A stretch of 60,474 bases of DNA from IMG/VR virus record IMGVR_UViG_3300045988_152007, positions 1-60,474 of that record; one strand, given 5' to 3'. The DNA is from a virus. A program made the translations under genes and the position numbers. Positions within the stretch are counted from its first letter, which is position 1. Each line of letters starts with the position of its first letter. The notes beneath the pieces are model-generated. The model was not told the DNA's origin, ran no database searches, and saw only the letters and a program-made list of their open reading frames with translations. This document shows, in pieces, positions 2,466-30,197 of this stretch.

Positions 2466-2540
2466 TGGCACCGGCTCTCAGAGTCGAACTGAGACTTGCT
2501 GATTTAGAGTCAGCTGAGCTAACCGTTACCCAAAGCCGGA
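2466..2540 (-). tRNA. amber suppressor tRNA, anticodon CUA (reads UAG); U1:U72 mismatch and G73 resemble tRNA-Gln identity
   Basis: Acceptor TCCGGCT/AGCCGGT, D-stem with G-U pairs, anticodon stem GCTGA/TCAGC, loop CTCTAAA, T-arm CTCAG-TTCGACT-CTGAG, G73, CCA encoded. Confidence 0.7.
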
Positions 2541-2559
2541 ATATATATACAAGACAGTT

Positions 2560-4040
2560 TAATAAAGTATCTTCTTATGAACCAAAAACATATGATTATC
2601 TTTAATAAAAATTTGCTGAAACTGTCTTAGAGAAATTATCCTAACTTCTCTTTATCTTGTAAATATATTATACTAAATAATTTTTTTAAAATCAAATTAT
2701 TCAGTAGAATATATTTACAAAAATTAATATATCCAATAGGAATAAACTACACCATAGCCACTAACCATTTATAGGTCGCCTCTATGCCTGCCCACGCCAC
2801 TAAGTACTTCAGCTTACCTCATTCATTAGCTATTGGAATATATTAAATTTTTGACCTACCATTAAACTTATAATACCTACCAATAGGAAGTAGAATATAC
2901 AGTTTTTAATAATAGGATTTTCATTCTATAATCTAACACAATAAATAATAACTCTACCTATTATATGTCTTTTTCGTAGTCCATTACGTCTCATTTTCCA
3001 CGCCTTTATATGAGAGACTACCAAGGATCTTATTTCCGCACTTGGTAATGGCTTTTTGGTATGTGAGCCACAAACATCCCTATTCAGCTTATTTATAGTG
3101 GAGAGCTGGCTGGTTTAGCGTATTGTTCCACTACCTAATTAACCAAGATTAGGACGCTAATCAAATATCTGATACGTATCAGTACGGTTTCCAGATATAT
3201 CATTTCACCGGACAACAGGCGAGTCAACCTTATTTGATTAGATTATGTAAGAACCCTACAGCCATAGGAGCAGGTTCCGCAGAGGCCTCTAACGATGTGG
3301 GATTGGCTACCCAATGAGGTTAATGTGCAAGCCACCGCCTATATTAGCATCTACATAATTCATTTCAAATAAATCATTTAATGATTTATTTTTAACAGGA
3401 AAGGAAATCGTAAGTTATTAAATAATAACTTAATTACAATTATACTACGGACCTTCGCCCTACTGGTTAATAATCTTCATTTTATTAGGTAAGTAAGGAA
3501 ACAAGTCTGAGCTATGAATAGCGACTTCATAACTTCTTGCCCCGGCCTAAGCCAAATCTCACAGAGGACTGACTACCTCTATCTTTCACCGACCATTCAG
3601 AATAGTATTACCAATAATTTTTACTAAATTAATATCATACTGTCTTGGCAAATTTCGGCTACTTGACCCTTGACCTTCTCTTATAGTAGATTACGCCACA
3701 TCAATTGCCAACTTCCTTATTGGTATTTCCTTGGTTTGGCAAGGTTACCAGCCTTACCCTAACAAGGATTCGGCATTGCTGTTAACAATGCTGTCTATTA
3801 TGGAAGCGAGAAGAACAGGACCTTAAATGCGATTATCCCAGCACAATCTCCCCGTAGCCGCATCCTTCGATGCGTGAATCTAATGTATCACTACAAAAGA
3901 TTTAGAAATAATTTCAAAGTATCCTTTGAATATTCCATTCTACAATCTCCGCCAGAGTGGATCGATTTCTCAGCCTTATGGTGTTAAGTCTGCACTGAGT
4001 TGTACTATAACCGTAATTAAATTATTATTTAATTTTTAAA
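2560..4040. other. 1.5 kb ORF-free block, AT-rich to 2950 then ~40% GC, with degenerate tRNA-like hairpins; probably transcribed from the promoter at 4060..4088
   Basis: No ORF >=60 aa; anticodon-like hairpin GCATTG-CTGTTAA-CAATGC near 3755; perfect palindrome CTGATACGTATCAG. Confidence 0.25.
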
Positions 4041-4633: not shown

Positions 4634-4708
4634 TGGCACTGGTGGCTGGATTTGAACCAACGAATACAGGAGTCAAAGTCCTGTGCCTTACCGCTTGGCG
4701 ACACCAGT
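4634..4708 (-). tRNA. tRNA-Gln(TTG)
   Basis: Acceptor ACTGGTG/CACCAGT, D-arm GCCAAGCGGTAAGGC as in E. coli tRNA-Gln, loop CTTTGAC, G73, CCA. Confidence 0.8.
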
Positions 4709-7031: not shown

Positions 7032-7060
7032 ATTATATAAAATTTTTTTTAAATTTTCAA
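7032..7060 (-). promoter_or_regulatory. sigma70-type promoter TTGAAA-N17-TATAAT (minus strand)
   Basis: Motif family member. Confidence 0.6.
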
Positions 7061-7932
7061 ATTATACAACATAAATAATGTGCTAATTCTAATTGATATT
7101 CTTGCTTAAAGAAAAAAGGAACTATTGAAAAAATTATAGTGAATACATCATTTCGACCGCTTAATTTAAAGCTGTTATAAAATAATGGTAAATATTTTTC
7201 ACATATTTCATTATAAGTAATTTGATCATTCTTATAATGAAAATTCTTTAAAGGATCATCACTTTTTAATGTTTTACATTTTAAAATATCTTTTGAAGTT
7301 ACTTCTTCATATAAAGTTATTTTAGCAAATCCATTATAATGTTTATATAAATATGGACAAATAATCGGGCAAGGGTCATTGCATAAAAGTTCAAATCTAT
7401 TTCTTACTTCTATTGGAATTGATTCTAAAAACTTAAAATCTTTTATTTGTCTTCGAGGTAAAACAATTTTATCATATTTATTTAAAAGAGACAAATAATC
7501 TGTATTTTTATTTGAAGCTATTATACTTCTTTTAATTTTAAATTTAGGATATTTATTTCTTATATATTCTTCTAAAATAGAGGAAGAAACTAAAATTGAA
7601 TTATTTTCATTTTCACATAAGGAAACGATTTTATTACAATATCTATCATACAAGTCTTCTTTTGTTAATAATGGATTTGTTAAGGTTAAAGCAATTTCTA
7701 TATTATTTCCATAATAAAAATCAATAATTTCTTTTATTTTTTCTAATGAAGGTTGATAGCCTTGATTGACAGTTCCTCCATTCCAAATCATATTTGGGAA
7801 TGTATCGAATATACTCTCTATAGCTACATTAAAATTGAAACATTCTGGAGCTGTCTATTGTAATTCTAAAAGAGTTTTATATATATTAAATCCAGTATAA
7901 AATCCTGGACAATTTAAATTTATTTTTTTCAT
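7057..7932 (-). CDS. hypothetical protein, paralog family A (NIWNGG / FYxG motif), one in-frame TAG
   Basis: ORF 7057..7791 extends upstream through a TAG to ATG ~7932 (MKKINLNCPGFYTGF...). Confidence 0.55.
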
Positions 7933-8269
7933 ATTTAAATTATATAATATTTTTTACTTTTTATCAAATATAAAATTTTGAATAATTTGTATTCTCCATT
8001 TTTTGAATTAACTAATTTTGATATTTTGTGTTAGTAGGAGCATTTAAATAAAAATTTTTTATTTCTGAAATTTTATTTAAAAGTTCATTTCTTTTTACTA
8101 TAAAATCAAAATTACTGTAATTATTAAAATTATTTTTTATATCTAAAATATATGGTTTATACATTCCTAGCTATAAACTTTGTTTATAACTTTTTGTTTT
8201 ATAATATTCAATTATTATTATTAGATCAATAAAAGATTTATAAATTAATTTATAATAATTTTTTAATTT

Positions 8270-8710
8270 ATAATAATTTTCTCGTAATCCAGTCTAAAAT
8301 AATCTATTACTTTCATTAATTAATTGAGAATAAATGACTGGTAAATTTTCTTTAACTATATCTTCATTAATTTTTTTTATTTCTAAAGTAAATTCATTAT
8401 CACTTAAATAATGATAAGGGAATAACCATCTATAATAACTATAGTTATTATTATAAAATAAATTATAAATAAAATGTTCTCCTGTATAAATCCGCCTTGA
8501 AGGATTCCAATTTATAATATTAAATTTTTTCATAAAATTATTAGACTATTCCTATGGAATTAAATTTAAATCAAAATTTGAAATTTTTTTTAATTCTTTT
8601 TCCATATTTATAAAAGAAGAATAGATTTCAATAATATCTATATCACTTGTGTTATTATTTATTCCATGCTGGTAAGAACCATCGATCAATCCATATAAAA
8701 AATAATCCAT
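8270..8710 (-). CDS. hypothetical protein (~146 aa) with in-frame TAGs
   Basis: Frame containing ORF 8294..8533 extends to ATG 8708-8710 (GAGGT upstream) and downstream to TAA 8270-8272. Confidence 0.5.
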
Positions 8711-8712
8711 AG

Positions 8713-9348
8713 TTACCTCAATAGTATAGTTAAATTTTTTGTATGTTCAATTAATTTTTTTATTTTAAATATTGTTAAATGAAAAGCCCATTTATCAGGA
8801 TAATGGTCAGTATCATGTTTATAATAAAATTTTGGTAAATGATAATATTTAGGATATAAGATATTAAATATTTCTTCATCTGTTTGAAAATTTATATAAA
8901 ACTATAATATTGATTTATATAAATTTTTATTTGGCTTTATTATAGCTATTCCGCCACTTAATCGTCCTTTAGATTCCTAGTTATCATATACTTCATAAAA
9001 ACTACCATCTGGATAATCAAAAATATTATCAATATTTTCAGCAATTAAAATATCAGCATCTATAAAACAAATTTTTTTGTACTAAGTTAAAGTATAAATA
9101 AAAAATTTATTAGCGGTATCTTTATAAAAATTAGAATCTCCACAAAAATAAATTGGCTATTCTATTATTTTATAATTTATATTATTTTTTTTTAAAATTT
9201 TAAAATAAATATCTGATACATTATTAGTAGTTAATAGTAAAAATGGATATTTACTATTAACTTTTTTTAATGAAAAATATAAGGCACAAGCACATTTAAT
9301 ATATTTATCAGTTGTTGCAAGTGTTACAAAGCAGTATTTGTCGTTCAT
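8713..9348 (-). CDS. family 8 glycosyltransferase-like protein, 4 in-frame TAG
   Basis: N-terminus CFVTLATTDKYIKCACALYFSLKK; downstream DADIL and GGxA motifs appear when TAG is read through. Confidence 0.55.
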
Positions 9349-10249
9349 CAGTGACTCCTAAAATATCTGTTACACAATGTTCAATAAAATCATATTGGTA
9401 TTCTGGTAATAATAAATATCGAGCATAAGTACATATATTATCAATATAATTTAAAGAACGTCCCTCTAATTTATACTATTCAATACCAAGAGGATAATAC
9501 AAATTATAAATATTATCTAATGTTACTGTATTCTTATAAGCAATAACTTCTGGGCTATTAACACTTTTAACTGCTTTACAATTTAATGTATAAGGTTTTC
9601 CATAAGATAAAGCATATTCACTATTGATTTTATAATGATTAATACGATTTGGACAATTAGGAATACAAATTGCATTACATAATAATTCAATTTTATTTTT
9701 TAAATTTAAAGGAATTTGTTTTAAAAAATCTATATTAGAATTTAAATCATAATCTAAACAAATAAATTTATATTGAGCTTTCTTAATTTCATTTAAACTT
9801 TGTTCTAAATTTGTAATTCTTTTAGTGGTTGAAGAAATAAAATTATACTTATTATATTTATTTCTAATATATTCTTCTAACCCTTCATTATTAATTACAA
9901 TTTCATTCAATCCATTATTTCCAATAGCTAAAATGAGATTTTCAAAACGATTATTATAATTTTCTTTAGTTAATAACTAATTTGTAAAAACTAATCTGAC
10001 CGCAATATTATAAGAATTATAAAAATTAAAAATTTCCTCAATATCTTTCTTTAAAGCCTAATGAGTTTTAAAATTAGTAAAAGTTCTGCCGCCTTCCCAA
10101 GAACAAAATTGGAAATTTCCATAACAAGCATGAATTGTAATATTTTTATTAAAAATTTCTGGCTATTTATTAAGTTGTTCAATTGTTAATTTATTTAATT
10201 GGTATGTTTCATACATACCTGGTAAATTAAAATTAATCATTACTTATAT
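9308..10249 (-). CDS. hypothetical protein, paralog family A, in-frame TAGs
   Basis: ATG 10247-10249 (MINFNLPGMYETY...); the frame includes ORF 9476..9910, which ends in TAG. Confidence 0.5.
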
Positions 10250-10250
10250 T

Positions 10251-11099
10251 TTATCTCCTTATAAATAATTCTTGAAAGGCATATTCTTTAAATTCTGGTT
10301 TAATAAAATAATTAATTAAAAATAGACCGTATTCATTTTCATTGTTAGAGAAATAATCTATTAAAAAATTAGTGATACCCATAGGGATATAAATATCTTT
10401 AATTTCTTTAATCGTTATATATTGTTTATTATTTATAGAATTTTTACAATTACAAAATGTAGGTTCAAATGTATAATTTAATATATTATTATTTTCTACT
10501 ATTGGACATTGAAAATAATTTTTACATTTTGGATTACAAAGATTATTAACTGGAATTATAATATTTTCTTTATTATTAATTTCATTTAAATATTGCTGTG
10601 AAGTTTTAAACTCGTTAGGGATTATTATATATAATGGATTTAAATTTTGATGAAAATTATTTATAATATCGGGAGTAAGAGGATATAAGATATTAGCATT
10701 TTTAGAAATAACATATTTCAAATTAGGAAATTTGTTATTTATATAATTTAATAAATCTAAATTACTAATTTCAAAAATGCAATTATTTGGTAATAATTTT
10801 AAAATTACATTACTCATTACATCATAGAAATCTGATTTTTCTAATAAAATATTAGAAAAATCTAACCACAAAGGTAAATTACTTTGCTTAATTATTAATT
10901 CTATATTAGGATACAATAAAGTATCACCAACCATGTTATTTAATCCTCCATTCCAAATATTATAAGGGAATGTCCCTCTAATATAGGAAAAAACTATGTT
11001 TTTATCAAGAAGCCAATTAGTATGGCTTCTTGATAAATTAATAAATTTATCATTTACAGTATGAAAATAGTAAAAATCAGGTAAGGTAAATTTAATCAA
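10251..11099 (-). CDS. hypothetical protein, paralog family A (282 aa)
   Basis: ORF track; FPYNIWNGG motif shared with 7057..7932. Confidence 0.65.
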   Translation of the reverse strand: MIKFTLPDFYYFHTVNDKFINLSRSHTNWLLDKNIVFSYIRGTFPYNIWNGGLNNMVGDTLLYPNIELIIKQSNLPLWLDFSNILLEKSDFYDVMSNVILKLLPNNCIFEISNLDLLNYINNKFPNLKYVISKNANILYPLTPDIINNFHQNLNPLYIIIPNEFKTSQQYLNEINNKENIIIPVNNLCNPKCKNYFQCPIVENNNILNYTFEPTFCNCKNSINNKQYITIKEIKDIYIPMGITNFLIDYFSNNENEYGLFLINYFIKPEFKEYAFQELFIRR

Positions 11100-11102
11100 T
11101 TT

Positions 11103-11360
11103 TATTCTCCTATAGAATATAGCTAATTTGTTAATTTATTTAATTCTTTTGAATAATCTATATTTAAATCTTTTAGTCGTAAATCCTAATTCTATAATAA
11201 ATTTGCTAAGGTATAAATTATTTTTTTATTGACTTCTGGATTTGGTTCTTCTAAAGTAACCATATTATTGTATATAACAAATAATAAATCCATATATCCC
11301 TTATTTTCTTTTATAATATTATTTGTAATTTCTTTTAAAATATTATCTAAATTATCCATT
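11103..11360 (-). CDS. small hypothetical protein (MDNLDNILKE...) with TAGs
   Basis: Hand translation; start overlaps the stop of the upstream gene. Confidence 0.3.
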
Positions 11361-12641
11361 TAAATCATACCCCAATTCTATAGCTATGTTTTCTATTACT
11401 TTTGGTAATATTTTTTGATCTTTCGCACTTTTCAAAACTCCAGTTTCAAAATATAATTTAAATAAATAATTATATTTTTCTTGAAATAAATTACAAACTG
11501 ATAAACAAGGGATAGAAAAATCACCATAAGTTTCTATCTAAGCTCCCAAACATCCTTTAATACAGACATCTCTACACCAGCATTCTAAACATCTTGGAGC
11601 ATAAACAGGGTTAAAAGATTTCATTCCTATATAAGCTGTGGCATTATCACTTATTAAATCAATTATCTCTGTTTTTTCATCATTTATTTTAAAATGTCCA
11701 CCAATTAAATGATTATAACAAGTACGATGACAAGGAACGATAGCTAAATCTCCAACCCTTATATGGACAGTAGACTACAATGCACAGCTTATTCGGTTAT
11801 GTCTGTCTTCTTTATCTGATAAATTCATTAATCGTATAGGATCTCCATTGTGCTCATTAAATGTAGGAGTATTATTAGCCCCATCCCCTTTAAACATTGC
11901 ATAAGCCATAGTATTAATATCATTATTGCAATCATTCAATCTATCTTCAAAGATATGTTTTAAGAATTTTTTATAATTCTCTATAGATTCTTGAGTCCAA
12001 TTATTATTTCGAACTTCTAACATATAAGGAGTTTTCTACCATGAATTGTATTCTTTTAATTTCTTTTTAAACCAATCATAAGTTTTAATGGCTTTATCAA
12101 CATTTTGGCTAGAAATCATAGGATGGAAGCCATCATTATTTTCTGTAGCAAATTCAAATAATTTATTAAAATATTCATCATTTAAATCTTTATGTTCTCT
12201 AAATTCAGTGCTATACGGCCCATCAGTAGAAAATGAAAAATGAATTTCTACATTTATATCTTTCATCTTTTGGATATATTTTTTTATTTTTATTACTTTT
12301 TCATTATCAGAAATAAAACTACCATTAGTAGGTATTACTAGTTTACCTTTTTCTTTTATTTTATAAGCAAATTCATACCATTTTTTTAAATACGGAAAAA
12401 ATACATCTAGTATTTCAAAAATTAATCCATCATAAAATAAGTCTCCGGCGAATAATGACCATTCTAAAGGTTTTATTTGTTTTTTATCAAAATAATCTAA
12501 TAATAATTTTAAATTATCTAATATCTAAGAATTAGAAAAATGTTCTGGATATAATTCTTTGCCATAATTAGTTATATAACAATAATCACATTTTTGATTA
12601 CAGTCTTGTCTTATAATTAATTCTAATATTTCATTTTCCAT
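11352..12641 (-). CDS. radical SAM / SPASM-domain protein (anSME-like peptide-modifying enzyme type), in-frame TAGs
   Basis: N-terminal CNQKCDYC and C-terminal Cys-rich CHRTC...CLECWCRDVCIKGC; merges ORFs 11775..12023 and 12036..12266. Confidence 0.55.
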
Positions 12642-12721
12642 CTTTTTTAATTCATGATTAAAAATAAAATTCTAAAATAGAATATTTTCTTCCTATTGGA
12701 AATCAATAGACGTTGTTATCA

Positions 12722-14155
12722 TTATTTTTCCTCCAAAACTTCTTCAATAATTCCATTACAATATCTTCTTAAAAATCCACTATCTCTAAAGAAATAAGAA
12801 CCAGTACTGATTAAACTGTTAAAAAAGCAAGAATGTATAGGTACTAATAATAATGCTGCTTTCATTAAAAATTTATCATCATTAAATTTTTGACTTATCT
12901 AATGCACTTCTCGTAAATTACATAATAAAGAAACAATCTAATTATATACATAAAAAAAACTAGATACAGATAAAGTTTCAAATAAAAAACAACAATTTTT
13001 TATATCTTCATCTTTATCTTTCAATGGATTTATATAATTATGATGATTTGCGGCAAATTGCTTAATAATCCCAATTTTATCATTAGTATTAATATATTCT
13101 GGATTAGTATCATAAAGAGAACTCTAACAATTTACTAATGTTCCATCATATAAAAGTTTTAAGCTTCCTGTTTTTTCTCCGCAATATAAGAATGGAGTTA
13201 AGTTTCTATTATAATTCTTTAATTCTTTATTAGAGAATGCTAAAACTTTATCAAGAGCTTCATCTAAATTAGAACATTCCAAATTTTTTAATAAAAATTT
13301 TTTTGCTTTTCGAGGTAAACACAATAATCCTTCAATAGAGTCTTTATCTGGATTATTAATTTCTGGATAATGTTCTCCAATTGATTTACAAATTTTTATA
13401 AAATTACTCCAATTAATACCATCAATGCTAGAAGTATTAATAGGTAATTCGCTAGAGAAATTTATAGTATTTTTGATAAAAACAGATTTATTTAGATTTA
13501 AATTAGTTAAATATTGAATTTTTTCATTAGCCTAAATAAAATACTATTCTATTTCTTTGTAATTATTATTAAAATGATTTATGAGTTCATTACTAATAAC
13601 TCCATGAGTATTAAGAGCAATAGTAATATTATTAAAACGAATTGTATTTAAAGTTTCTATTAAATATTTTAAATTATTATATACTACTTTAGAATTAGCT
13701 CTTCTTACATTATCAGTACTATAATCTCCATCATAAGAAAACTAAATACAAATAAATGAATGTTTTTTAGTTAAATTATCAAAAGTTTTTAAAAAATCAA
13801 TTATTTTATCAGTATTAGCCATACCATTAGTAGAAGTAAAAAATTCATTAATATTGGGACATAATTCAAAAAAATCTTTTAAATTTTTAGTAAAATGTTC
13901 TAATACTAATGTAGGTTCTTGACCCCAAAAACTTATTTTATGGATATTTAATGGATCAACTTCTAATTTTTTCATAACATTTTTAATATTCTATAAATAA
14001 CTTCCATCTTTAAGAGCCTTTATAGTCTATTCTTGTAACTATTTACTATATTCATTTACAGCCTAAGCTGAATGACAATATTTACAATTTAAATTACATC
14101 CACAAGCTCCAATAATAGATAATTCTTCTATTGAAAAATCCGATATATATTTCAT
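12722..14155 (-). CDS. radical SAM protein 2, in-frame TAGs
   Basis: GACGCNLNCKYCH cluster near the N-terminus; ISFWGQEPTL glycine-rich SAM motif; merges ORFs 13124..13324 and 13742..13975. Confidence 0.5.
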
Positions 14156-14175
14156 TCCTTTTTCTCCTTTAAATG

Positions 14176-14691
14176 TTAAGTGTGACTAGAACCGTAATGA
14201 CTAGAGCATCCATGAGATGTACACCAGGTTTGATTAACCCCTGACCAATAGGAAGAATGATAACCTGAACCATCATGAGAAGAATTATAAGAAGTATCCC
14301 ATCCTGCTCCATAATTAGAACTATCCCAACTACTATTATATCCACTACCTCTATGGCTAGCATTATAACTCGCATCATGAGCGCAAGTATCATTTATGCT
14401 TCTAATTGTAGTAGTAAATCTATTAAAAATAATAGGACTAATTAAATCTCCTGCCGAAGGAGGATTTTCACTAATATTTGCTCTTGAACCAACATAACTG
14501 CTACTGGAAAAAGATTCTATATACTTATTTAAATTCTGAGCTAATTGAGCCATAGCTTGTGTTGACTATCCTCCAGGAGTCGCTTGAAAATCACTCTAAC
14601 TAGGGAAAAATTTTTTTCTTGCGGTATTTAAATTAGTAAAAATAGTCTAAATATCACTCCAATTTATTTTAGAGTTTGAACTAATTGCCAT
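14176..14691 (-). CDS. Ser/Gly/Tyr/His-rich small protein with Cys-containing C-terminus (possible modified-peptide substrate)
   Basis: ORF 14176..14553 extends through TAGs to ATG 14689-14691 after GGAGG. Confidence 0.5.
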
Positions 14692-15745
14692 ATTTTTCCT
14701 CCTCGTATTTTATAAAATCAATATACTCTTTGTTAATAAATTGTTTAATTAGTTTATTATTATCAAGTATATGATTTCCTTTATTAAATAGACTATTTAA
14801 ATTAAATAATACAGTATTATTTAATTTAATAAAATCTTCTTTTTTTATTTTATTTAATAAATCTTTATAAAACAATGATAACTTATTAAACAAAATTTTA
14901 TCATTAATTAAAATTAAACAAATAAGACTTAAACAAATTGCTTCTTCTTGTTTTATATCTTTTAGATATTCTTTGTCTTTATCAGTTACTTCTTCTATTA
15001 TAGATAAATTTACAATAATTTTATTAAAAATATGTTCGAAAATAAAATGATTATTTTCATATTTTTTATTTGTTAAATATTGTCTATAAAAATAAGTAAA
15101 AACAATTAATTCATTTATTGTCATATATAAAAAATTAATATCTTTACCCATACTTTCATTATTTCTATTATATACGTAAATAGGCTATTCTAAGAAGGGA
15201 ATTGCACCATTATAAAAATCAAAAATCTATAATGATAAAAATCTATCTTCATTATAAATAAATTTGCCATAAGAAAAATTATTTTTTATAAAAAATTCTC
15301 TATTATATAAATAACTATGAGCGTCATGGATAAATTCATTTTTATCATAGGTCTATCCATTTACAATTCCATAATTATTATTTTCAGCATATATATATAA
15401 ATTTTCTAAAGCCTTATTATCATAAAAATAATCATCACTATCTAAACAGAAAAAATACTTATTGAAGCTATTATTAATTCCTAGAGTCCTAGCTGATGCA
15501 GGGCCTGATTTAGTTTTCTAAGTATCTAATAATATTATATTGTATATATTATTATAAGTTTTATAAAATTCATATACATATTTTTTATCTGGAGAATTAT
15601 CACTAATTAAATAGATTACACAATCATTAATAATACTTTGTTTAAAGACAGAATCTAAACATTTCTAAAAATATATTTTATTTATTGTATAAAAAGGAAT
15701 TATAATATCAATTTTTCCTTCGTTGCGCTTTCTAAATGTCCTCAT
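14681..15745 (-). CDS. family 2 glycosyltransferase-like protein; may be the C-terminal part of a fusion with the upstream radical SAM domain
   Basis: IIIPFY...DSDDYF (DXD) motifs; frame is continuous with 15746..16645 when TAG is sense. Confidence 0.45.
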
Positions 15746-16645
15746 TTTATCAGGAGCATACCAAGAATCAACGTTATTCCAAGATTTCTTTTTTGAAAAA
15801 TCCTAAAAATTAGAAAAATCAACAAATTTTTTATAATATTCATTATAATTTGTTAAGAATAATTCTTTTTCTGTTTTAGTATATTCATCATAAGTTTTAG
15901 TCGATTGATCCCAATCAACCACATCTCCTGGCCGACAATATTTACATATATTTTTTTCACATAATTTTAAATTCTATAAATCTTGTAAATTTGTTTTTTC
16001 TGTTAGTTTTATAAAATCTTTATTTTCTATTAATGGAATTTGTTTAAAAAAATAATTACAAAAATTATTTATGTGTGCCCCAAACTGACAAAAATATATT
16101 TTAAAATCTTTTAATGTAAAGCAAGGAATCCTATTTGGACAACTATATATACGAGTTTTATTATCTTGTTTACCTAAAGGGTCAACCAATGTCTAATCAA
16201 AGAAAAATCTATCATTTAAATATGAGATATTTTTATTATTGCTAAAATCTTTGTAGTCTTGATTAGGATATTTAGAAATACTTATATGTATATTTAATTC
16301 TTCTAATTTTTTTAATTTTTTTGTATCATAATTATTTAAAATTATACCATTAGTTAATATCTTTATTTCTATCTCTGGGAGAATATTTCTAGCTATCTAA
16401 CATAATTCTATTAAATTAGGATGTAAAAATGGTTCTCCCCCTAATAGCATTAAAACTTTAATAGAAGGCAAAGTTTTTTTTACTAATTTTAGCTAATTTT
16501 GAAAATCTTCGTAAGTAATAAAAAATGGAGAAGCCAAAGGAGAAAAATGATTACAATTATTACATTGTAAGTTGCAATGGTCTACTAAATGAATTTCTAA
16601 TTCAAATCCATCAAAAACTGTAGGCCAAAATGCTCTAGTAGGTCC
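15746..16645 (-). CDS. radical SAM domain protein 3, possible GTG start
   Basis: LVDHCNLQCNNCNHF and MLLGGEPFLHP motifs; same frame as ORF 15974..16189. Confidence 0.4.
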
Positions 16646-16746
16646 ATCTCTATACTAATTTATTTTATTCACCTTCTTTTTTTATTATTATATAAAAAAA
16701 ATGCTTGAAAAGCAAATTTTAAGAACAAGCTTTTCAAGCATTGATG

Positions 16747-17070
16747 TTAAACAAAATGAATAATTAAATTATTAATTTGGACTCCATTATCATTCATAAT
16801 AAAAATTTCATCTACTTTATTATAATTATTATATTCCCAAATTAGTTCTTCATTATCATTATAAACTTTTATATTTTCAATTTTATCTAATTCCATAAGC
16901 CATCCTAACATTTGTTTTATATTATAATTAGATGGCACATTTCCTCTAGCTGCTTCTAATAAAAACATTGTTTTTGGCTAATCATCAGAAGCAGGATGGT
17001 AAGCTCGTTCTGTAACAAAACTTAAATTATCAATAGGTTTATCAACTAAATTATTAATTATAATTTTCAT
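16747..17070 (-). CDS. hypothetical protein (~107 aa), one TAG
   Basis: ATG at 17070 after GGAGAAAG; includes ORF 16747..16968. Confidence 0.5.
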
Positions 17071-17103
17071 TTTTCTTTCTCCTTTTATTTTTTATTAGCC
17101 CCA

Positions 17104-17532
17104 AGCAACTGGGATAGGTTTCCATGAATCGCTTGATGATGTACGATATTTCAATACTCCATTACTAGAAATATCTACCCAAATAAGAGCAGATGAAGAA
17201 GAAGGAGCAGTAGTCCCAATATAAATCTAATTGTTTGACGTAAAACCAACAGTAGGAGTTATAGTTGGATTACTATTATCCACATAATTTTTAGTAGCTA
17301 TATCATTACCAGATATTGGGACATAGTTATTCGCCATCTAAATTTTACCATTGGCGCTCATTACATTTACTTCATCTTTATAAAGACGCTATTCAAAATC
17401 ATCGTCTATAATTACTAATGATTGTTCTTCATTTAACTAATTATCCTCTTTTAATTGTCTATATAAAGCTCTAGTAGGGATTTGATTGATAGAAAGAGTA
17501 TTTAAATTTGTACTAGTTTTTGAAGCCATTTG
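17104..17532 (-). CDS. small tail-associated protein sharing a C-terminal domain with 21898..22890
   Basis: ATG ~17532 after AGGAGG; shared IYIG..LIWVD..KYR..VAW motif. Confidence 0.45.
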
Positions 17533-17572
17533 TATACCTCCTTCTTACTTTTTCTTTCTTATATAAATAAAA

Positions 17573-17607
17573 AATAGGACATAATAATTTAATTATTATG
17601 TCCTATT
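17573..17607 (-). terminator. hairpin AATAGGACATAATAATT...AATTATTATGTCCTATT followed by a T-run on the minus strand
   Basis: 17-bp stem; sits downstream of the tail-fibre gene and between the promoter 17667..17695 and the next gene start. Confidence 0.5.
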
Positions 17608-17666
17608 CAAGAAAGGGGGTGAGTTAAATGCTGTAAATAAAAAATTTATTTCTTATTTACATTTAT

Positions 17667-17695
17667 ATTATATAAAATAATTTTTTAAAAATCAA
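17667..17695 (-). promoter_or_regulatory. sigma70-type promoter TTGATT-N17-TATAAT (minus strand)
   Basis: Motif family member. Confidence 0.45.
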
Positions 17696-17707
17696 ATTTT
17701 ATAATGC

Positions 17708-20428
17708 CTAACTCCATGTGTTTGCGGCAGTTTTTGCCCATATACCTTTTATTTTATGCCAGCCGGTCAAGGTAACAGCAGGTCCGCCAGTGAAGGTGCC
17801 TGTTCCGGCGTTTTTATAGAATACTTTATTTATTTTATCCCATAGACCATAAATATTAGTTGTAGTTTTAACTGGAATAAAATCGCGGACTAAAGTGTTT
17901 CCATCATAAATTTGACAAGAATATAATTTTGCACTTAAAAAGTATTTAGCGGTTCCAACATCATTTAATGCCAATAAAAACATATTAGTTGTAGCATTTA
18001 CTGTGCTAGAAGTATTGGTAATCATAATATTATTAAATGAACATATATTTTTATTTTTATCAATATTTGTTATTTGCATAACAGTAGGAGTTTCAGCAGT
18101 TAATGATGAACCAAAATAATCACTACGATATAATGTAGCGGCTGGAATTGCAGCATTATAAGCTTGAGAAGCAGTAGGAAAAGTAGCATTTCTTGTGCCA
18201 AAAAATGCACTCCAAGTACTCCAAGACATTGGTTCAGCTTTCATAATAGTGCGAGTTGTAGCTTTGGGAATAAAATTACTATCAATATACTATGTGCCAC
18301 TAGACTATATATATTCAATCGGTGTTCCTATTGCTGCAATAGCAGATTTTTCTGTGCCTGCTGTAAAATTGCCACCATTTTCATCAGTATAAAATTTAAG
18401 ATTAACTTTATCCCATAAGCCAGCTTTCCCATCAGATATCCTTCTAGCTGGGATGAAATCACGAACTAATGTACCATTATCATATATTTTACAAGAATAT
18501 AATTTCATTGAAGCTTTATTATAATTGCCACCATTATTTACACTAAATAAATATAAATTATTTCCATCCTTTGAGAAATCACTAGAATTTGGAGTAACAG
18601 TTATTTTGCTAGTGTCAATGCTCCATATATTATTAGTATTATTTGAAATATATTTTCTTTTCCCAGTTAATTCTGCAAGCGTTTTATTATTACTTCCATA
18701 ATAAGCATACATAGTCGTATTTTGTCTCCACCAAGAAAAATATGAACCACTAGTATAATCACCTAGTATCATAACCCATCCACTCGCAGCAGATACATCT
18801 ATATCAGCTTCAACCTTTAGGTTTTTTGAAGCTTTAATGCCAGTGTCAATATATTGTGTACCGGTACTTTCAATGTATTCTAATTCAACTAATCCACTAG
18901 AAATAGTAGTACTACTTCCAGTATTTACGAACATTTGTACTGGTTCTTTCCAATTATTCGAAGTAGTTTTCACTAAAGTATTTCCAGAACTAGCTTCTAT
19001 AACGGTAATACGTATATAGCCATTACCTGCATGGCCTGTTTCACTTGTACCTGTTGGAGAAATAAATGCAGCATTTCCTGCTAATATAGTAGCATTAGTT
19101 AAATAATAAGATGAATTCAATAAACAACCAGAAGGATAATAAGAGGCTGAGCTGGAAGTGTACATATAACCAGAACCACCACCTCCAACACCGATAGCAC
19201 CACCGCCGCCATACCAGCCGCCGCCCCCTCCTGAGCCATAATAAGTGTTTGAACCACTATTATAATTTCCACCTTGTCCGAAGCTTCCTGCAGTAGTATA
19301 ATTAGAATAACTAGTATTTGCTGCACCACCCTAGGTTTGGCTACCACCACCACCATACCAGCTGCTACCACTAGATGAGTCTTGATTATTATATGTCTTG
19401 CCTGATATTCCTCCACCAGCAAAACCAGCCAAACTAGTATAGCCACTAGAACCACTGCCACCACCAGCGACTAAAACTCTAGCATATAAAGAATCGACAG
19501 CAATGCGAATATCTGTGCCGCCGCCACCGCTTCCTCGACTATTAACTGAGGTAGCAGAACCGCCTCCATTGAATCCTCCAGCAGTGGTTGCTCCATTTGA
19601 ATTATAAGTAGTTCCATTAAGGCCCTATCCACCGGTATATAAATATAAATTAGTTTTCTTATTTAGAGTTATAATTCCTTTACTATAACCGCCTTTACCG
19701 CCAGGCTAGGAAGTATTATTAGTTCCATTGCCTCCCTAGGCGCCCCAGCATTCTAATTGATACTATCCTTTTGGAAGAATTACTGATTTCATAGACCCAC
19801 TATAAGGACAATTTAATATATCACCAGTCTATATTTTTGTAGGAGTTGTAACAGTTAAATCATATTTATTAGGAGCTTCATATTGAATTGTTTTATTACC
19901 AGCAAAATATTCAATATTAGTATTGCACCATTCCTGAGTAGGTTCATTACCTGTGCCGAATGCAGCAGTTAAATCAATAAGCATAGCATCATCAATATAT
20001 GCTACTGTATTTCCCACCATGCCTTCAAAATCAAATCTAAATTGAGCTGTCTAATTATCATTCCAGTTAGCACGTACATTATGCCAACTTAATCGCTGCC
20101 ATTGATTTAATTTAGTTTTATCTACTTTAGCAATACCTACTAATGGTTCTGCTATTGGCCAATAACATTGCATTTCAGAACATACATTAACAGTTTCATA
20201 AAAATAAACACTTATATAATATATATGATTTTTTCTGATAGCATATGTGTCAGAGGTTACAATTAATGATTTAGAACTTGAGGTAGATGTGACTTTTAAG
20301 CTATAAGAGCCGGAATGTTTAGGAGAGGTGGCGTAACTAACTGAGCAAGCTGAATTAGCAGTCCAACCTGTCTTTTCAAAACTTGGATTAGTTAATAAAT
20401 TAGTTAAAGTAATTGTTTGTTTTGCCAA
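17708..20428 (-). CDS. large tail fibre (907 aa): N-terminal CBM-like domain, Gly-rich region, two C-terminal repeats (LYSC.IYD.GTLVRDFIP...GLWDK.N..FY); many in-frame TAG
   Basis: 2721 nt, exactly in frame from ATG 20428 to the stop at 17708; joins ORFs 20051..20428, 19829..20020, 18305..19165 and 17708..18244. Confidence 0.6.
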
Positions 20429-20443
20429 TTAAATCAACTCCTT

Positions 20444-20882
20444 AATTTGTATCATATTGTATCCAAATATCGCCGATATTACCATCTGATGCTGTTGGTT
20501 CTGCAGTAGATATTAATATTGGGCGTAAATATTTTACTGATGCAGTAATTGGAGTAGTGCCATTCCAAGTCATTGGTGTAGTTATTCCTGTTGGCTATTC
20601 GATTGTTACTGACGGAGACCAAGTATTAGTAGAAGTTAAGGTTAGATATTTAGTATTCGTAGTAGAATAACCTCTATTACGGAAATCTCTATAATAAAAT
20701 TTTATAGTATTACTACCAGTAGGGATTTCAGTTAGCATATAAATATCTGAATTAAATACTACAATAATATCTTTACCACTGTCCCAAGCATCTTTAATTT
20801 CTTTATAAGTGGTAATATCTTTAGTTGCGATAAATACGCCACCTGCATTTTCAATCTATTCTATAAGTTTAGGTTTAGACAT
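20444..20882 (-). CDS. hypothetical structural protein (~145 aa)
   Basis: ATG 20882 after AGGAGG. Confidence 0.4.
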
Positions 20883-20895
20883 TTAAAAACCTCCT

Positions 20896-21882
20896 TTAAT
20901 TATTAAATTTAGGAATCGCTATATAATAATAAGTATAACCGTTATTATTGAATATACTAGTATAATAACTACTAGCAGCAGTAATAATAACTGATTTTGA
21001 ATTCCAAGTAAAGCTAACATAAGTGCCATTATTGTTAGGAAATGGGTATTTCATTCCTTGTATGCCACACATATAATTTTGAGCAGTACCAGCGTTAGTT
21101 TGCACCATAAATAGCATCAAATAAGCAGGTTCAAAATTAAAATTAAGAGTTTTTATTAAAGCATTATTTCCTATATAACTTCCAACATAAGCTCCTTTGA
21201 TACTTATATCGCCAGTCATTCCATTTACTGATCTAACCAAATGAGATGTAAGATATCCAGCATCATTAGTTAATTGACTTACTTTAGAAATTTTGTTATT
21301 CTATATCTACTAATCAACATATTTTTTATCGGTTAAGTCTCCAGTATTAGATGGTGTATAAGTACTATTCATAGTTATTTTGCCTGTTGTCATAATATTA
21401 TTTTTTGAGGTTAATAGCATTTCATTCATATCTTTTGGCAATTCATTTATTTTATTATCAATAGCCTAAATAGTATCATTTTTTATAATCTATAAGTCAT
21501 TTATCACATCTAATAAATAGTCTTCTGGTTCTATTCCTCGAATATTAAGAACAATAATACTATCATTAGCTGATGCCGCAAAATCTAATAACTTAATTTT
21601 ATTATCTTGAATTGTATAGTTTATATTTTTAGTCATTAATATACCATTAAAAAATATATTTAAATCTTCAGGATTTTCAACAGTAAAAGGAAAAGTAAAT
21701 GTTGTATCTCCTTCTTGTGCAATGAAAGAATATTTATAAGGAAGGTCATCTTCTTTATTTACAATGTATATTTCATCATTATTTACTTTTCCTTGTTTCA
21801 CCATTTGATTATAAATTTTCCTAGATGGAACTTTATTTATAACTAAAGAATCTAATAATTTTTCATTGTTTTTTATTTCCAT
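20896..21882 (-). CDS. tail protein (328 aa) joined across TAGs
   Basis: 987 nt in frame; joins ORFs 21490..21882 and 20896..21240. Confidence 0.55.
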
Positions 21883-21897
21883 CTATTATTCTCCTTA

Positions 21898-22890
21898 TTA
21901 ACTCCAAGCAACAGGTACGATAGTCCAAGTTCCAGTTTTAGATGTACGATATTTAAAAGTACCAGATGAAGATGTGTCAATCCATAATAAAGGTGCTGTG
22001 CCTGACGCGGGAGTAGATGAGCCAATATAGATTGGAAAAGTAGTAGCTGTACCAACTATTGAAGGTTTACTATCATCTACATATTTTTTTGTAGCAACAT
22101 CTCCGTTTGCTGAAGGAGTATAAGTACTATACATAGTAATCTTACTATCAGCAGCCATTGTGTTTGTTTTATTTAAAAACATAATATTGGAAGTATCCGA
22201 TGGTAATGTGGCAACTAAATCATTAATTTCTTTAAGAGTCTTTTCTTTCACAGTATTTATTTCATTAATTGATGAAGTTTTTATAGCTTGTATTTGTTTA
22301 ATTGCATCTTCTGCTTCTTTACCAAAATCAATTGCTGCAGCTCCTTCTATACCCATTACAGTAAGATAATCACCAGCTTCGGCTGTGAATCCAGCAAGTG
22401 TAATTACTTTACTAGATACTGTATAGTTATCTATCTCCCTCATCATTATACCATTATAATAAACAGTAAGTGCGCTACTGTCTTCAAAATCAAATGGAAT
22501 AGTAAATGTAGACTAACCTGCTGTTGCAGTAAATGTAAATCTATTTACTATATGGTCATTAGCGGCAACCTAGTCATCTACATATTTTTTATTTGCGGCT
22601 TCTGTATCGGCTGTTGGAGTTTTTAAATTAGTAATTGTTTTATTATTAATATTAATATTACCAGTCATAGTACCACCAGCAAGAGGTAAATATTTTCCAT
22701 TTATAGTATCTAAGTCATTAATAAAAACCAGATTTCCTACTTTAGTAGCTCCATCACCTATTTTTATTTTCTTTAAATCATCATATATAATAATTTCGCC
22801 TTTTAAGGGGACAAAATTAGTTGCTTTATCCCAATTAGCTTTTGTATCATGCTTCTAAATCATACGGCCTTGGAATGTATTATTTGCCAT
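21898..22890 (-). CDS. tail fibre protein with HylP-type N-terminal domain, 3 in-frame TAG
   Basis: 993 nt in frame; TAG codons at 22513, 22570 and 22855; GGAGGA precedes ATG 22888-22890. Confidence 0.65.
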
Positions 22891-23035
22891 TATATTTCCT
22901 CCTTAAACAAAAATATAGGGAAATAAATATTTTGAAAATAGTTCAAGATATTTATTTCCCTATATTAAATATCTTTCTCAATCATCTATTTTCAAAAGAG
23001 TAAAGATTATAATAAATAAGTTATCAATTTCAAAC

Positions 23036-24178
23036 TTATCCTGTCCATTTAGTCCAAACAGCTGAATTAGTATTTTTTACATAAATAAATCCATCACTAA
23101 TACCAATTGTACTATTATCTATTTTTACACCGCCAAGAGTAGAGGTTGAAGCAGTTGGTAATGTGTATTCAGATATGTCTGTTTTTAAAGCATATTTAGA
23201 TAAATCTGGTTTATTTAATAAATCAGCATAATTACCTGACTAGCTACTAGATGGTAAACTATTTATAATAGCTCGACACATCGCATCTTTGCTGATTGCT
23301 TCTAAAGTAGTAGGTTTTTCTACTATCTTAGACCATAAGATATTTGCATCAGCTATAATTTCTCCTGTTGCATATAATTTACCATTTTCATCAATACCGA
23401 TACCAGTTCCGCCGCCCATAACTACACCTAATGTATTTTCACTAGCTATTGGAGCATGATAATTATTCATGACATCATTTATATACGTTTTAGCCTTTTT
23501 TAAAGTTTCATTATCCTAATTATTTACATAATTAAATAATCCTTGAAATGTATTAGGTCCTTTAATTGTTCCATCTTCTTGTAACCATCTTAATAAATCA
23601 CCTGTTGGCTTTTCTTTGGTAAATTTAATTATATTATAAGCCTAATTTTCCCAAGATATTTCTTTATAATTAATAGCAGAATTATCTTGAGGACTATGAC
23701 CAACACAAGTGGTATCATAATATAACATATCTTCAAGAATAATACCATCTTTCTTGGGCTAAGTATTTTTTTTATATTCTATAGAAGAATAAGTTATTCC
23801 ATTAGAAACAAATTCAATATTACTTTTAAAATAGAAAGATGGGGCTTTATGAATAATCCAGGTTTCACTTAAATCATTTTCTTCATTACCATTAAATTTT
23901 GCTTCTAACATTTTAGTATGATTTTTTAAATCATCTAATGTTACACATTTTAGTTCTACAAATTTATTATTTACTTCTTCAGATAAATTTTTTTCTGTTA
24001 AAATCTTAGGTTTATCATTTAAATCATTGTAGCTTGTAACTATATCTTTCTAATAAGCTATTCCGCCATTAAGTCTAATATCAGATAATAAATTTTGTAA
24101 TTCTTCTACTGTTAATTTAACGACATATTTATCACTTATATTAGGAAACTATAATGATTTTAATTGTTTATCTGCCAA
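23036..24178 (-). CDS. hypothetical tail-associated protein (380 aa), TTG start, 5 in-frame TAG
   Basis: 1143 nt in frame; AGGAGG 8 nt before TTG; contains ORF 23240..23470. Confidence 0.5.
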
Positions 24179-24297
24179 TGAAAGTTCCTCCTTTCAATGT
24201 TTCTTATTCTAAAATTATATAAAAAATAAAAATATCAAATTATTTAAATTAGTCCAGATAAAAAAAAAATAAAGACTCCAAAATGGAGTCTTTATTA

Positions 24298-24639
24298 TTA
24301 TATATTTACAGTTGAAGAACCGCAATCAAAAATTACATAGTTGGCATCAGGGTTAGCGCCTATTTCATCAAGGGTATAGGATGGCTTTGTAGGTGCCTTA
24401 GCCCATGCCGGGACATCTGCTCCAAGCCCTGCTCCCCAAGGTAGTTTTTCCCATGTGGTCGTACCATCACCAACTTTAAATAATACAGTAGGAGCTGTGG
24501 TTGTTGTACCAGATGTAAGTGCTGGTACATAACAAAATCCCACTTCACCGGCAAGTAAAACTTTTGATTTGTTTGCAGTCCAATTAGCAAGTGTATCGTA
24601 TTTTGACTTAATACGAATATTTAAAGTTTTATCAGCCAT
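24298..24639 (-). CDS. small HylP-N-domain protein (113 aa)
   Basis: ORF track; motif DTLANW...GE.G... Confidence 0.6.
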   Translation of the reverse strand: MADKTLNIRIKSKYDTLANWTANKSKVLLAGEVGFCYVPALTSGTTTTAPTVLFKVGDGTTTWEKLPWGAGLGADVPAWAKAPTKPSYTLDEIGANPDANYVIFDCGSSTVNI

Positions 24640-24740
24640 TCCAATCCTCCTAATGGAAAGGGGAGATTTCTCTCCCCTTATAATTTATTAAATCAAAGCG
24701 TATTAGCGTTACCACCATCAAGGATAAGAGTATCAGCACC

Positions 24741-27326: not shown

Positions 27327-27349
27327 ATTATATTATTCCTCCTTCAAAA

Positions 27350-28570
27350 TTAACCAATCGTAACGCTATATGTTTCACCAGCGTCAATAGAAGCAGGTTG
27401 ATAGACATATACATCATAAGGAGCTGCAGCATAGCTTTCAGCACCTTCAACACTAACAGTAGTGCCTTGTTTAACAAATAGAGCTGTAACATCAGCATTA
27501 AGAGCACTTGGCATAAAAACCTTCGTAATCTTACGACCAGCAGGAACTGCAACGATAACTTTCTTTGCGCCAGCTCCAGCACCAAATGCGCCTAATGTAC
27601 CAGCGCCCTAAGCTTGTTTATGAGCAAGAGCACGAACATTAGCAGAGTTAAGTCCAGCATCAGAAGTCATAGGACCCCAGAACATATAACGAACACCCTG
27701 AAGAATATTACTATCCTTAGAAGCAGAGCCTGCTGCAATTTTACCCGCAGGATAAGGATTGCCCAAATTGGTTACTGGAATAGATCCTTCATTATAAGTT
27801 GCTTTAGCTGTAATCTTCTTAGCAGTAGCTTCAGCAACAACATTTTCAAAAGTACCTGTTGCAGTTGTTTTCTTTTCGGTTACACCAGTGCAACTAACTT
27901 CCCAAGTCTAAGCCGCAATACCAGTAGCTGGACCATAGGTATAACTACCAGTAGATAGAGCTGCTGTATATGTTAGATTCTTTTTAGTACCAATCTCAAA
28001 TGTACCAAAGCCGCCCTGTGCGCTGAAGCTAACAGCAGGATTGGACTTAGTGGGATTAGCCTCTTGAGCCATTAGGCTAGAAAGCACCTGTTCGACATTC
28101 TTACCTTTCGCCGCAAATTTAGCAGAACCCGAAGGCTTAGAAAGAGTACCAATAGCAACGGTATAAGTAATGTCATCATCAAAATAAACATTGTCAGCGC
28201 GATAATTGCCATCCATAGCTTTCCAAGTACCATCATATACATAAGCAGTATAAGAAATCTTATCGCCAGTAATAACACGCTTTACAATAGCAGTATCGCC
28301 ATTATGAAGTTCTGCAGAAGCTACAACACGAGTAATAGCCTGAACATCAGTTTCCTCACCTGCTGGAATAGCTTCGAAATTTTTAGCTTCATCACCGCCA
28401 ACAAAGGTTAAGTTTTCAAGAGTGGATTCACCATCACCAATCTTCATTTTATGAAGATCACTATCATAGACAATTTCACCACGAAGGGGAACTTTATCTT
28501 TCTTCGCCGCAAGATTGGCAGTAGTATCATTTAATACTTGAATACGAGTATTAAGAGTTTTATCAGCCAT
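27350..28570 (-). CDS. tail fibre with HylP-type N-terminal domain (406 aa), in-frame TAGs
   Basis: ORF 27908..28570 ends in TAG and the frame continues to TAA ~27350. Confidence 0.55.
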
Positions 28571-29108: not shown

Positions 29109-29123
29109 AGATTATTCCTCCTT

Positions 29124-30185: not shown

Positions 30186-30197
30186 CTCGTGTTCTCC

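Follow-up and report, generated by a model that had tools for sequence, protein, structure and literature searches.

Does the CUA-anticodon tRNA gene of this phage encode a working reader of UAG and, if so, which amino acid would it insert and which enzyme would charge it? The window, by which we mean the whole stretch of 60,474 nucleotides that was analyzed, derives from a large low-GC phage known solely from metagenomes; PHROG matches, Mtd_N fibres, homing endonucleases, and IMG/VR relatives give its phage context.

A tRNA gene under structural selection

The original prediction, made from the sequence alone, proposed an amber suppressor tRNA with glutamine-like features and suggested a tRNA search of the minus strand. 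ARAGORN, run on the whole window, calls a 75-nt tRNA at 2466-2540 on that strand, with the anticodon cta at position 34, and the same segment matches the Rfam tRNA model in a whole-window search with 49.2 bits (gathering score, 29; E = 1.6e-7). All 13 tRNAs that ARAGORN reports for the window are on the minus strand, and a single one of them has the anticodon CUA. The label "tRNA-Pyl" that it prints is its default name for any CUA anticodon. The RNA features discussed in this section are as follows.

2466..2540, minus strand: amber suppressor tRNA (CUA, U1·U72 mismatch, G73, encoded CCA), identified by ARAGORN, Rfam, cloverleaf fold, and family covariation
2541..2641, minus strand: 5' leader of ~100 nt, with an imperfect inverted repeat whose 23-nt arms are 74% complementary
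2667..2695, minus strand: candidate sigma-70-type promoter, TTGATT-17-TATAAT, ~125 nt upstream of the suppressor, a consensus match only
4634..4708, minus strand: canonical tRNA-Gln(UUG) (A1:U72, G73, CCA), identified by ARAGORN and Rfam

Read directly, the suppressor begins UCCGGCU UU GGGU AACGGUUA GCUC A GCUGA CUCUAAA UCAGC AAGU and continues CUCAG UUCGACU CUGAG AGCCGGU G CCA. In the acceptor stem U1 faces U72, and positions 2-7 form six Watson-Crick pairs with 66-71; two linker nucleotides separate the acceptor and D stems. The D-loop (8 nt, including GG), the anticodon arm (5-bp stem, GCUGA/UCAGC, and loop CUCUAAA), the 4-nt variable loop, and the T-arm with its UUCGACU loop are all of the ordinary type, and both the discriminator G73 and the CCA end are encoded in the gene. 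ARAGORN, Rfam, and direct reading therefore agree with the complete cloverleaf, CUCUAAA loop, CUA anticodon, and encoded CCA that had been predicted, and the U1:U72 mismatch and G73 are likewise present. The folding energy of the single sequence (z = -1.27) is not exceptional and is uninformative; we consider it ordinary for a tRNA. It is the covariance-model score, together with covariation across a family of relatives, that places the structure beyond chance.

This family was collected from IMG/VR. A search that used the anticodon arm alone as the query showed that CUA tRNAs there have several unrelated architectures, among them one with G1:C72 and C73, one with a long variable arm and A73, and the present type. 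Two further scans were made for the present type, the second leaving positions 1, 72, and 73 free, and the family comprises 16 distinct sequences from contigs of 10-200 kb. In their alignment, 14 of the 21 stem pairs have changed on both sides with pairing preserved, and pairing holds in 92.6% of cells; none of 500 shuffles reached the family values, and slid registers were only 29-46% paired. The family retains all four stems, the CUCUAAA loop, and CCA; G10 is invariant, and G73 is found in 16/16 members, the window copy included. The first base pair is open in 15 of the 16 (U·U in 14, U·C in 1), the exception being A:U, and two phages, L149 and L152, each carry an A1:U72 copy adjacent to a U1·U72 copy. 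Pairs 2-5, as well as U35 and A37, were fixed by the search patterns, so that family conservation at these positions is uninformative. GenBank phage records gave no match to the suppressor tRNA, nor to one conserved protein of the phage. We conclude that 2466-2540 is a genuine phage tRNA gene under structural selection.

The gene lies in a 1.28-kb stretch (2150-3430) without any ORF of at least 40 aa, within an RNA island that holds tRNA-Gly, RAGATH-33, an HNH endonuclease gene, the suppressor, ROOL RNA, tRNA-Gln, and tRNA-Thr. Promoter matches similar to the candidate upstream of the suppressor (10-11 of 12 positions) are found ahead of tRNA-Thr (7060-7032), ROOL (4088-4060), and tRNA-Gln (4778-4750); sites with this pattern number 48, compared with 35.8 +/- 5.4 in shuffled sequence. 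The candidate promoter shares sequence with a 27-nt inverted repeat at 2657-2720, and one arm of the leader repeat (2538-2560) covers tRNA nucleotides 1-3. An Rfam search of the ORF-free DNA around the suppressor, leader included, returned no match, and the flanking motif CAGCAAATTT is not enriched (15 matches versus 12.7 expected).

The nearby tRNA-Gln(UUG) had also been predicted as canonical, on which ARAGORN and Rfam agree, and had been offered as a possible evolutionary source of the suppressor. That second idea found no support: the suppressor is 63% identical to tRNA-Gln(UUG), no more than to tRNA-Leu (64%) or tRNA-Ser (63%). When the family was compared with ~200 phage tRNAs, no isotype stood out as the source, the best mean identities being Arg 0.65, Lys 0.65, and Gln, in third place, 0.64; the A1:U72 variants in L149 and L152 alone are nearest to tRNA-Gln, and weakly so (0.67-0.69). 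Descent from the adjacent tRNA-Gln(UUG) is thus not supported. We regard that gene as a companion Gln decoder for CAA and CAG, and not demonstrably as the ancestor of the suppressor.

The meaning of TAG

When TAG is read as sense, coverage of the window by ORFs of at least 100 aa rises from 58% to 86%, and the summed ORF length on the minus (coding) strand rises from 11,373 to 17,946 aa. TAG codons were counted in a curated set of 58 minus-strand ORFs, 57 of them complete. In-frame TAG occurs 125 times, in 36 of the 58 ORFs, and among the 57 complete ORFs the stop is TAA in 44 and TGA in 13, and never TAG. The base that follows is T after 22% of in-frame TAGs and 23% of sense codons, compared with 53% of true stops (Fisher p = 7.5e-5). 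TAGs are not enriched near ORF ends as relics of old stops would be, with 8 in the last 20 codons against 9.3 expected. The same ORF-coverage test was ambiguous in short relative loci, where removing any stop lengthens ORFs in the tRNA-rich, AT-rich DNA. We conclude that TAG is a sense codon in this window. Its density is modular: very high at 7-24 kb, intermediate at 24-44 kb, and almost none at 44-60 kb, with TAG making up 45%, 23%, and 7%, respectively, of the Gln-type codons. The coding features on which the following argument draws are listed here.

7057..44212, minus strand: TAG-dependent gene block, with in-frame TAG in 29 of 34 ORFs and 112 TAG codons
12722..14209, minus strand: radical-SAM protein gene, with 12 in-frame TAGs
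38904..40244, minus strand: radical-SAM CXXX-repeat peptide maturase gene, with 7 in-frame TAGs
58862-60019, minus strand: S-adenosylmethionine synthetase (MetK) gene (Pfam), with a single TAG, at codon 21 (59957..59959)

The original prediction had derived the amino acid from the tRNA itself, taking a weak 1-72 pair and G73 as marks of glutamine. Its conclusion proved right, although the features are not diagnostic. We compared the acceptor end with those of ~320 tRNAs from the same phage loci: G73 accompanied by a 1:72 pair that is weak or missing occurs in 11/11 tRNA-Gln but also in 4/5 tRNA-Trp. The bacterial Trp identity set is G73, A1-U72, G2-C71 to G5-C68, A9, and C34/C35/A36 (PMC9976931, Table 1). 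The suppressor shares G73, G4-C69, G5-C68, C34, and A36 with this set and departs from it at U1, C2-G71, C3-G70, U9, and U35. Since the acceptor end cannot separate Gln from Trp, the assignment rests on codon alignments, not on identity elements.

Individual sites point to glutamine. Codon 21 of MetK aligns with the conserved Gln of the GHPDKxCDQxSD motif and, in an alignment to human MAT2A chains of known structure (PDB), stands opposite the Q of GHPDKICDQISD. Codon 249 of the maturase (39498-39500) is CAG or CAA in 10 of the 13 closest bacterial genomes, and TAG was found at none of the seven maturase TAG columns in 80 bacterial loci. Q occupies codon 37 (40134-40136) in 117 of 120 database homologues but in only 3 of the 12 closest bacterial genomes, and a Bacteroides MAG in which TAG serves as a stop (a neighbouring gene ends in TAG) has CAG there; we left this column out of the main argument. 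In the radical-SAM protein at 12722..14209, three TAGs fall in columns where 76-78 of 79 homologues have Q, a count that is partly circular, some homologues also having TAG there. Proteins of recoded phages stand in the database with TAG already rendered as Q: the gene for each of P0001, P0005, and P0129 "does not translate to the query" under code 11, and a distant recoded relative has TAG at 2 of the 4 "invariant Q" columns. The columns were therefore recounted on DNA, with TAG excluded.

For this recount, all ORFs of the window were aligned to the DNA of relatives and of bacteria, subject TAG codons were discarded, and a substitution profile for each amino acid was learned from the same alignments; 55 TAG positions were covered. 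Gln is the maximum-likelihood meaning of TAG in every subset, with the runner-up 19-126 ln units lower. The narrowest margin is in the bacteria-only subset, in which H lies 19 and N 25 ln units below Gln. The majority residues at the 55 sites are scattered (Q 11, K 10, E 8, N 5) because most TAGs occupy variable positions, and the Gln call thus depends on a few conserved sites together with the substitution profile.

Codon usage bears on the same question. The 7-24 kb module contains 87 CAA, 6 CAG, and 77 TAG codons, and the 44-60 kb module 51 CAA, 67 CAG, and 9 TAG; CAG nearly vanishes where TAG is abundant, and TAG takes its place. Counting TAG as Gln raises the Gln content from 1.8% to 3.2%, compared with 2.7% in the largely TAG-free 44-60 kb block, and evens it between modules. 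TAG and CAG are exchanged for one another in a 95%-identical relative.

It is improbable, on this evidence, that a functional amber suppressor inserts another amino acid here. Tryptophan draws its case from the tRNA, with the acceptor end that is common in tRNA-Trp of the phage loci and the Trp elements enumerated above; W, however, fills just 3 of the 525 aligned cells opposite TAG, in alignments that show 79% conservation of W at genuine Trp codons. Lysine and glutamate are the next most common residues opposite TAG, but genuine CAA/CAG positions likewise have these two as their most frequent replacements, and Q is ahead of K by 37-146 and of E by 47-154 ln units. The MetK and maturase sites and the specific trade-off of TAG with CAG tell against all three. 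On the strength of the codon alignments, we take TAG to encode glutamine in this phage; the reading of TAG as Gln that was implicit in the original prediction is upheld, its sense use by the ORF data and its identity by these alignments.

Other readings of the tRNA

The tRNA could also be a decayed gene or a decoy, with TAG read by a host suppressor, by another phage tRNA, or through RF1 inactivation and near-cognate readthrough. In some recoded phages no suppressor tRNA can be detected (10.64898/2026.08.21.746148), and suppressor tRNAs are carried by 35-40% of recoded phages (10.1101/2021.08.26.457843). Elongator tRNAs do not usually have a 1·72 mismatch, and a possible UUA-anticodon element at 33372-33442 is a candidate alternative reader. 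Against this, the four stems have been kept by compensatory changes with CUCUAAA, G73, and CCA retained across the family, and the suppressor recurs, identical or with a 1-nt difference, in two related contigs. It is also the sole CUA tRNA in a window with 125 sense TAGs, and the 33372-33442 element is missing from the 95%-identical relative. We rate a decoy as slightly less probable even than the insertion of a different amino acid.

Insertion of pyrrolysine by a tRNA-Pyl hardly merits consideration. The CUA anticodon and G73 would suit it, but in tRNA-Pyl the D-loop is very short and lacks G18G19, the variable loop measures 3 nt, the anticodon stem has 6 bp, and a single nucleotide links the acceptor and D stems, whereas the suppressor has an 8-nt D-loop with GG, a 4-nt variable loop, a 5-bp anticodon stem, and two linker nucleotides. 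Pfam found no PylS or PylBCD domains in the ORFs scanned, and the TAG columns are Gln rather than Lys-like. An initiator-type tRNA that starts translation at UAG is just as implausible: an unpaired 1·72 is a hallmark of tRNA-fMet, and initiator-like tRNAs in the same phage loci show C1·A72, but the anticodon stem (GCUGA/UCAGC) lacks three consecutive G:C pairs by the loop, pair 11:24 is G·U, and the TAGs are internal to ORFs, at conserved Gln sites.

The reading that we favor, with high confidence from sequence comparison, is that the gene very probably specifies a working elongator tRNA, one that pairs with UAG, delivers glutamine there, and lets ribosomes of the infected cell pass the 125 in-frame TAGs.

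Charging and relation to known suppressors

No synthetase, amidotransferase, or release-factor domain was found in the ~35 window ORFs scanned. Among cellular proteins, the nearest homologues of the maturase belong to Oscillospirales and other Clostridia, and the host is therefore probably a member of the Clostridia. The bacterial Gln identity set consists of G73, U1-A72, G2-C71, G3-C70, G10, and U34/U35/G36/A37/U38 (PMC9976931, Table 1). Among E. coli-type GlnRS elements, the suppressor has G73, U1, G10, U35, and A37; it has C2-G71 and C3-G70 in place of G2-C71 and G3-C70, and A36 and A38 in place of G36 and U38. A36 is obligatory for any amber reader. The U1-A72 element is present only as U1, position 72 being U (C in one family member), so that no pair forms. 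GlnRS binding opens the helix end, and an open 1·72 may suit the enzyme better than a weak pair, though the element as defined is a weak U1-A72 pair. GlnRS as the charging enzyme is in keeping with two precedents, the glutaminylation of amber derivatives of tRNA-Trp and the conversion of an amber tRNA-Ser to Gln identity by changes at 1-72 and 3-70 (PMC9976931).

A second route is suggested by GluRS-type recognition of tRNA-Gln, in which U1-A72 is accepted, G1-C72 is rejected, and a D-loop without an extra base is required (PMC2811023; PMC9976931). Like the substrates of nondiscriminating GluRS or GluRS2 and GatCAB, the suppressor carries U1 and lacks G1-C72, and its D-loop has 8 nt; it differs from them in having U in place of A72 and A36 in the anticodon.

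We propose the following mechanism. Host RNA polymerase would transcribe the suppressor from its own sigma-70-like candidate promoter in the ORF-free RNA island, RNase P would process the transcript, and a host enzyme would charge it, because neither a synthetase nor a release factor was found among the window ORFs scanned. The most likely route would be direct glutaminylation by host GlnRS, using U35, G73, and the opened 1:72; the permanent U1·U72 gap would pre-pay the opening of the helix end and offset the loss of G36. Alternatively, a nondiscriminating GluRS could act first and GatCAB, which likewise inspects the first base pair, could act second. As both routes involve reading of that pair, neither conflicts with an open 1·72 and G73. 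Charged Gln-tRNA(CUA) would compete with host RF1 at UAG, so that TAG-containing genes would be made full-length only after the suppressor had accumulated, as in the code-switch timing model of Borges et al.

A broader proposal is that the unpaired 1·72 and G73 constitute a selected, portable "glutamine acceptor-end module," set on a body that is not that of tRNA-Gln and combined with CUA, which would make the tRNA an efficient substrate of host GlnRS or of GluRS/GatCAB. We offer this tentatively and think it somewhat doubtful as it stands. An unpaired 1·72 would be expected to weaken EF-Tu binding, which counts to some degree against the elongator reading as a whole; under the module proposal, the mismatch could additionally tune the handling of the tRNA by EF-Tu or peptidyl-tRNA hydrolase.

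Classical amber suppressors mischarged by GlnRS include acceptor-end mutants of su+3 tRNA-Tyr. E. coli supE (tRNA-Gln CUA) and the likewise mischarged su+7 tRNA-Trp(CUA) and tRNA-fMet(CUA) combine CUA and its U35 with G73 and a weak or broken 1:72 pair, which leads to glutaminylation (PMC9976931), and the present tRNA has the same combination. In contrast to the E. coli suppressors, an entire family here has the unpaired 1·72 as its natural and conserved form. C-G rather than G-C is found at both 2:71 and 3:70, and position 38 is A rather than U; nor is the body that of tRNA-Gln.

Phages that read TAG as Gln with their own CUA suppressor tRNAs are established (10.1101/2021.08.26.457843), and TAG recoding in crAss-like phages has been validated by proteomics (PMC9523058). 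The "code 15" gut phages of Borges et al. (crAss-like, Lak, Garnet, Sapphire, Agate, Topaz) likewise have a phage CUA tRNA and in-frame TAG as Gln, the same side-by-side arrangement of recoded and largely standard-code modules (10.1101/2021.08.26.457843), and the same absence of a nearby encoded synthetase. The modular use of TAG in the window matches their model, in which genes with in-frame stops are expressed only after the code switch. The 95%-identical contig, aot2015...SRR1761673_Peru_scaffold_1 (187.7 kb), comes from the Peruvian sample set that Borges et al. used, and the size of the phage genome, ~190-215 kb, agrees with that of their large clades, for which Firmicutes hosts are predicted; the window has no clade marker such as terminase, and the likeness is not a clade placement. 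Charging of the suppressors was listed as an open question, with host GlnRS proposed (10.1101/2021.08.26.457843). The literature searched contains no description of the acceptor end of phage suppressors, and "discriminator" occurs 0 times in Borges et al. Phage suppressors that read TAG as Gln are thus already known, and the new detail is the unpaired first base pair: a conserved open 1·72 beside G73, in a covarying family, is the sole element that goes beyond the literature searched.

For this phage, the window needs to be annotated with TAG as Gln; the standard code truncates 36 genes and costs the window about one-third of its coding capacity. An open 1·72 that is conserved beside G73 provides a testable handle on how host enzymes charge phage suppressors with glutamine, and tRNAs of this kind could be natural starting points for engineered amber suppression in Firmicutes. 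If the acceptor-end module is real, it would be the means by which large phages known only from metagenomes co-opt host charging enzymes for a change of code, and it would answer the charging question that Borges et al. left open.

RNA genes and repeats around the suppressor tRNA

The island that surrounds the suppressor tRNA (anticodon CUA) includes two RNAs identified by Rfam, together with repeats and noncoding DNA:

3430-4023, minus strand: full-length ROOL RNA (Rfam RF03087, 323 bits)
2657-2720: 27-nt inverted repeat, 93% complementary, with a 10-nt spacer
2234-2370, minus strand: noncoding stretch, with the suppressor tRNA on one side and an HNH endonuclease gene on the other
1417-1529, minus strand: RAGATH-33 RNA (RF03102, 139 bits)

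The suppressor tRNA lies ∼900 nt downstream of ROOL, which has its own promoter match (TTGAAA-17-TATAAT at 4088-4060, by consensus). Phage tRNA islands are a known neighborhood of ROOL, an RNA that forms nanocages (PMC12286853). ROOL is again found beside a CUA tRNA in the distant relative L147, at 67% ROOL identity. RAGATH-33, with the HNH endonuclease gene immediately upstream of it, lies in a region that is also kept in a second distant relative, L151.

The noncoding stretch is 73% conserved in L151 and contains recurring CUAAG motifs; it opens (GCCGGUGUGGUGGAAUGGUAGACAC...) with an apparent type II tRNA 5′ half. A search of Rfam over 2250-2620 gave no match at E≤1, and the folding z score was −1.6. 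The 27-nt inverted repeat and the suppressor tRNA's candidate promoter overlap, and a second, imperfect repeat (2538-2641) could pair the 5′ leader with nucleotides 1 to 3 of the tRNA itself.

Other CUA tRNAs and unusual tRNA genes

Other phage CUA tRNAs, whose acceptor ends differ from that of the suppressor tRNA, were found in the IMG/VR loci L001, L002, L005, L006, L011, L024, and L155. Most of these share an identical anticodon arm, GCUGACUCUAAAUCAGC; the L155 tRNA, which came from an acceptor-free pattern scan, has a different one, UCGAACUCUAAAAUCGA. Their acceptor types are G1:C72 with C73, U1:A72 with U73, G1:C72 with A73, and an 84-nt form with a long variable arm and A73, the last being closest to tRNA-Leu/Tyr. 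Such tRNAs may differ in their charging, perhaps carrying other amino acids. Two further loci carry two CUA tRNA genes per phage:

L149, 29-103 and 331-405: paired CUA tRNA genes
L152, 7528-7603 and 7812-7886: paired CUA tRNA genes

Each pair, 200 to 300 nt apart, consists of one A1:U72 paired gene and one U1·U72 mismatch gene, all with G73 and CCA.

The window has further tRNA and tRNA-like genes of note:

31039-31124, minus strand: 86-nt tRNA, anticodon CCA, long variable arm, G1·U72, G73
33372-33442, minus strand: tRNA-like gene (Rfam, 48.5 bits)
36116-36186, minus strand: tRNA with the unusual anticodon AAA
37015-37159, minus strand: interrupted tRNA (46.6 bits)

The tRNA-like gene, for which ARAGORN made no call, has the anticodon arm UUGAA-UUUAA-UUCAA, which would fold either with a 5-nt loop or with a 4-bp stem and the loop AUUUAAU; in the latter fold, the anticodon UUA would read TAA. 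Its acceptor (G3·U70, A73, CCA) is, by these elements, of alanine-type identity. The element is a 73-bp indel, missing in the 95%-identical relative L050. The CCA-anticodon tRNA, whose long variable arm is unusual for Trp, is kept in L050. In the interrupted tRNA, the anticodon loop is split by an insert of ∼74 nt that itself resembles a tRNA, its 5′ half being similar to tRNA-Gly at 1048-1121.

Homing-endonuclease-type genes among the tRNAs

1703-2149, 5108-5551, 6192-6839, 31140-31769, and 32385-33053, all minus strand: five homing-endonuclease-type genes

One is of the HNH class, one is PD-(D/E)XK, and three are GIY-YIG paralogues. The HNH gene shares 70 to 73% nucleotide identity with hegA of the T5/Bf23 tRNA region. 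In all three GIY-YIG paralogues, the YIY of the N-terminal GIY-YIG motif is directly followed by a TAG codon. L015, a contig with 99% identity, is without 4152-4594, 5098-5575, and 6183-6918; on this comparison, these segments are a presence/absence polymorphism.

Radical-SAM genes, Cys-rich paralogues, and the host

7000-17500, minus strand: extremely AT-rich island (GC, 19 to 26%)
38282-40244, minus strand: gene for a Cys-rich CXXX-repeat peptide and that for its radical-SAM maturase
40929-42356, 44847-46490, and 50788-52506, minus strand: three paralogous proteins of 475 to 572 amino acids

The three paralogues, which have Cys-rich, zinc-ribbon-like C termini and few or no TAG codons, are kept in all relatives; the 40929-42356 product, the one covered by the scan, matched phrog_18912. 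TAG density for the window peaks in the AT-rich island, where CAG is nearly missing. This island encodes several radical-SAM/SPASM-like proteins and glycosyltransferases, the latter GT8-like or, in a fusion to a radical-SAM part, GT2. The phage SAM synthetase (58862-60019) may act as supplier for the many radical-SAM enzymes. The closest cellular homologues of the maturase are from Clostridia/Oscillospirales, which hints at the host.
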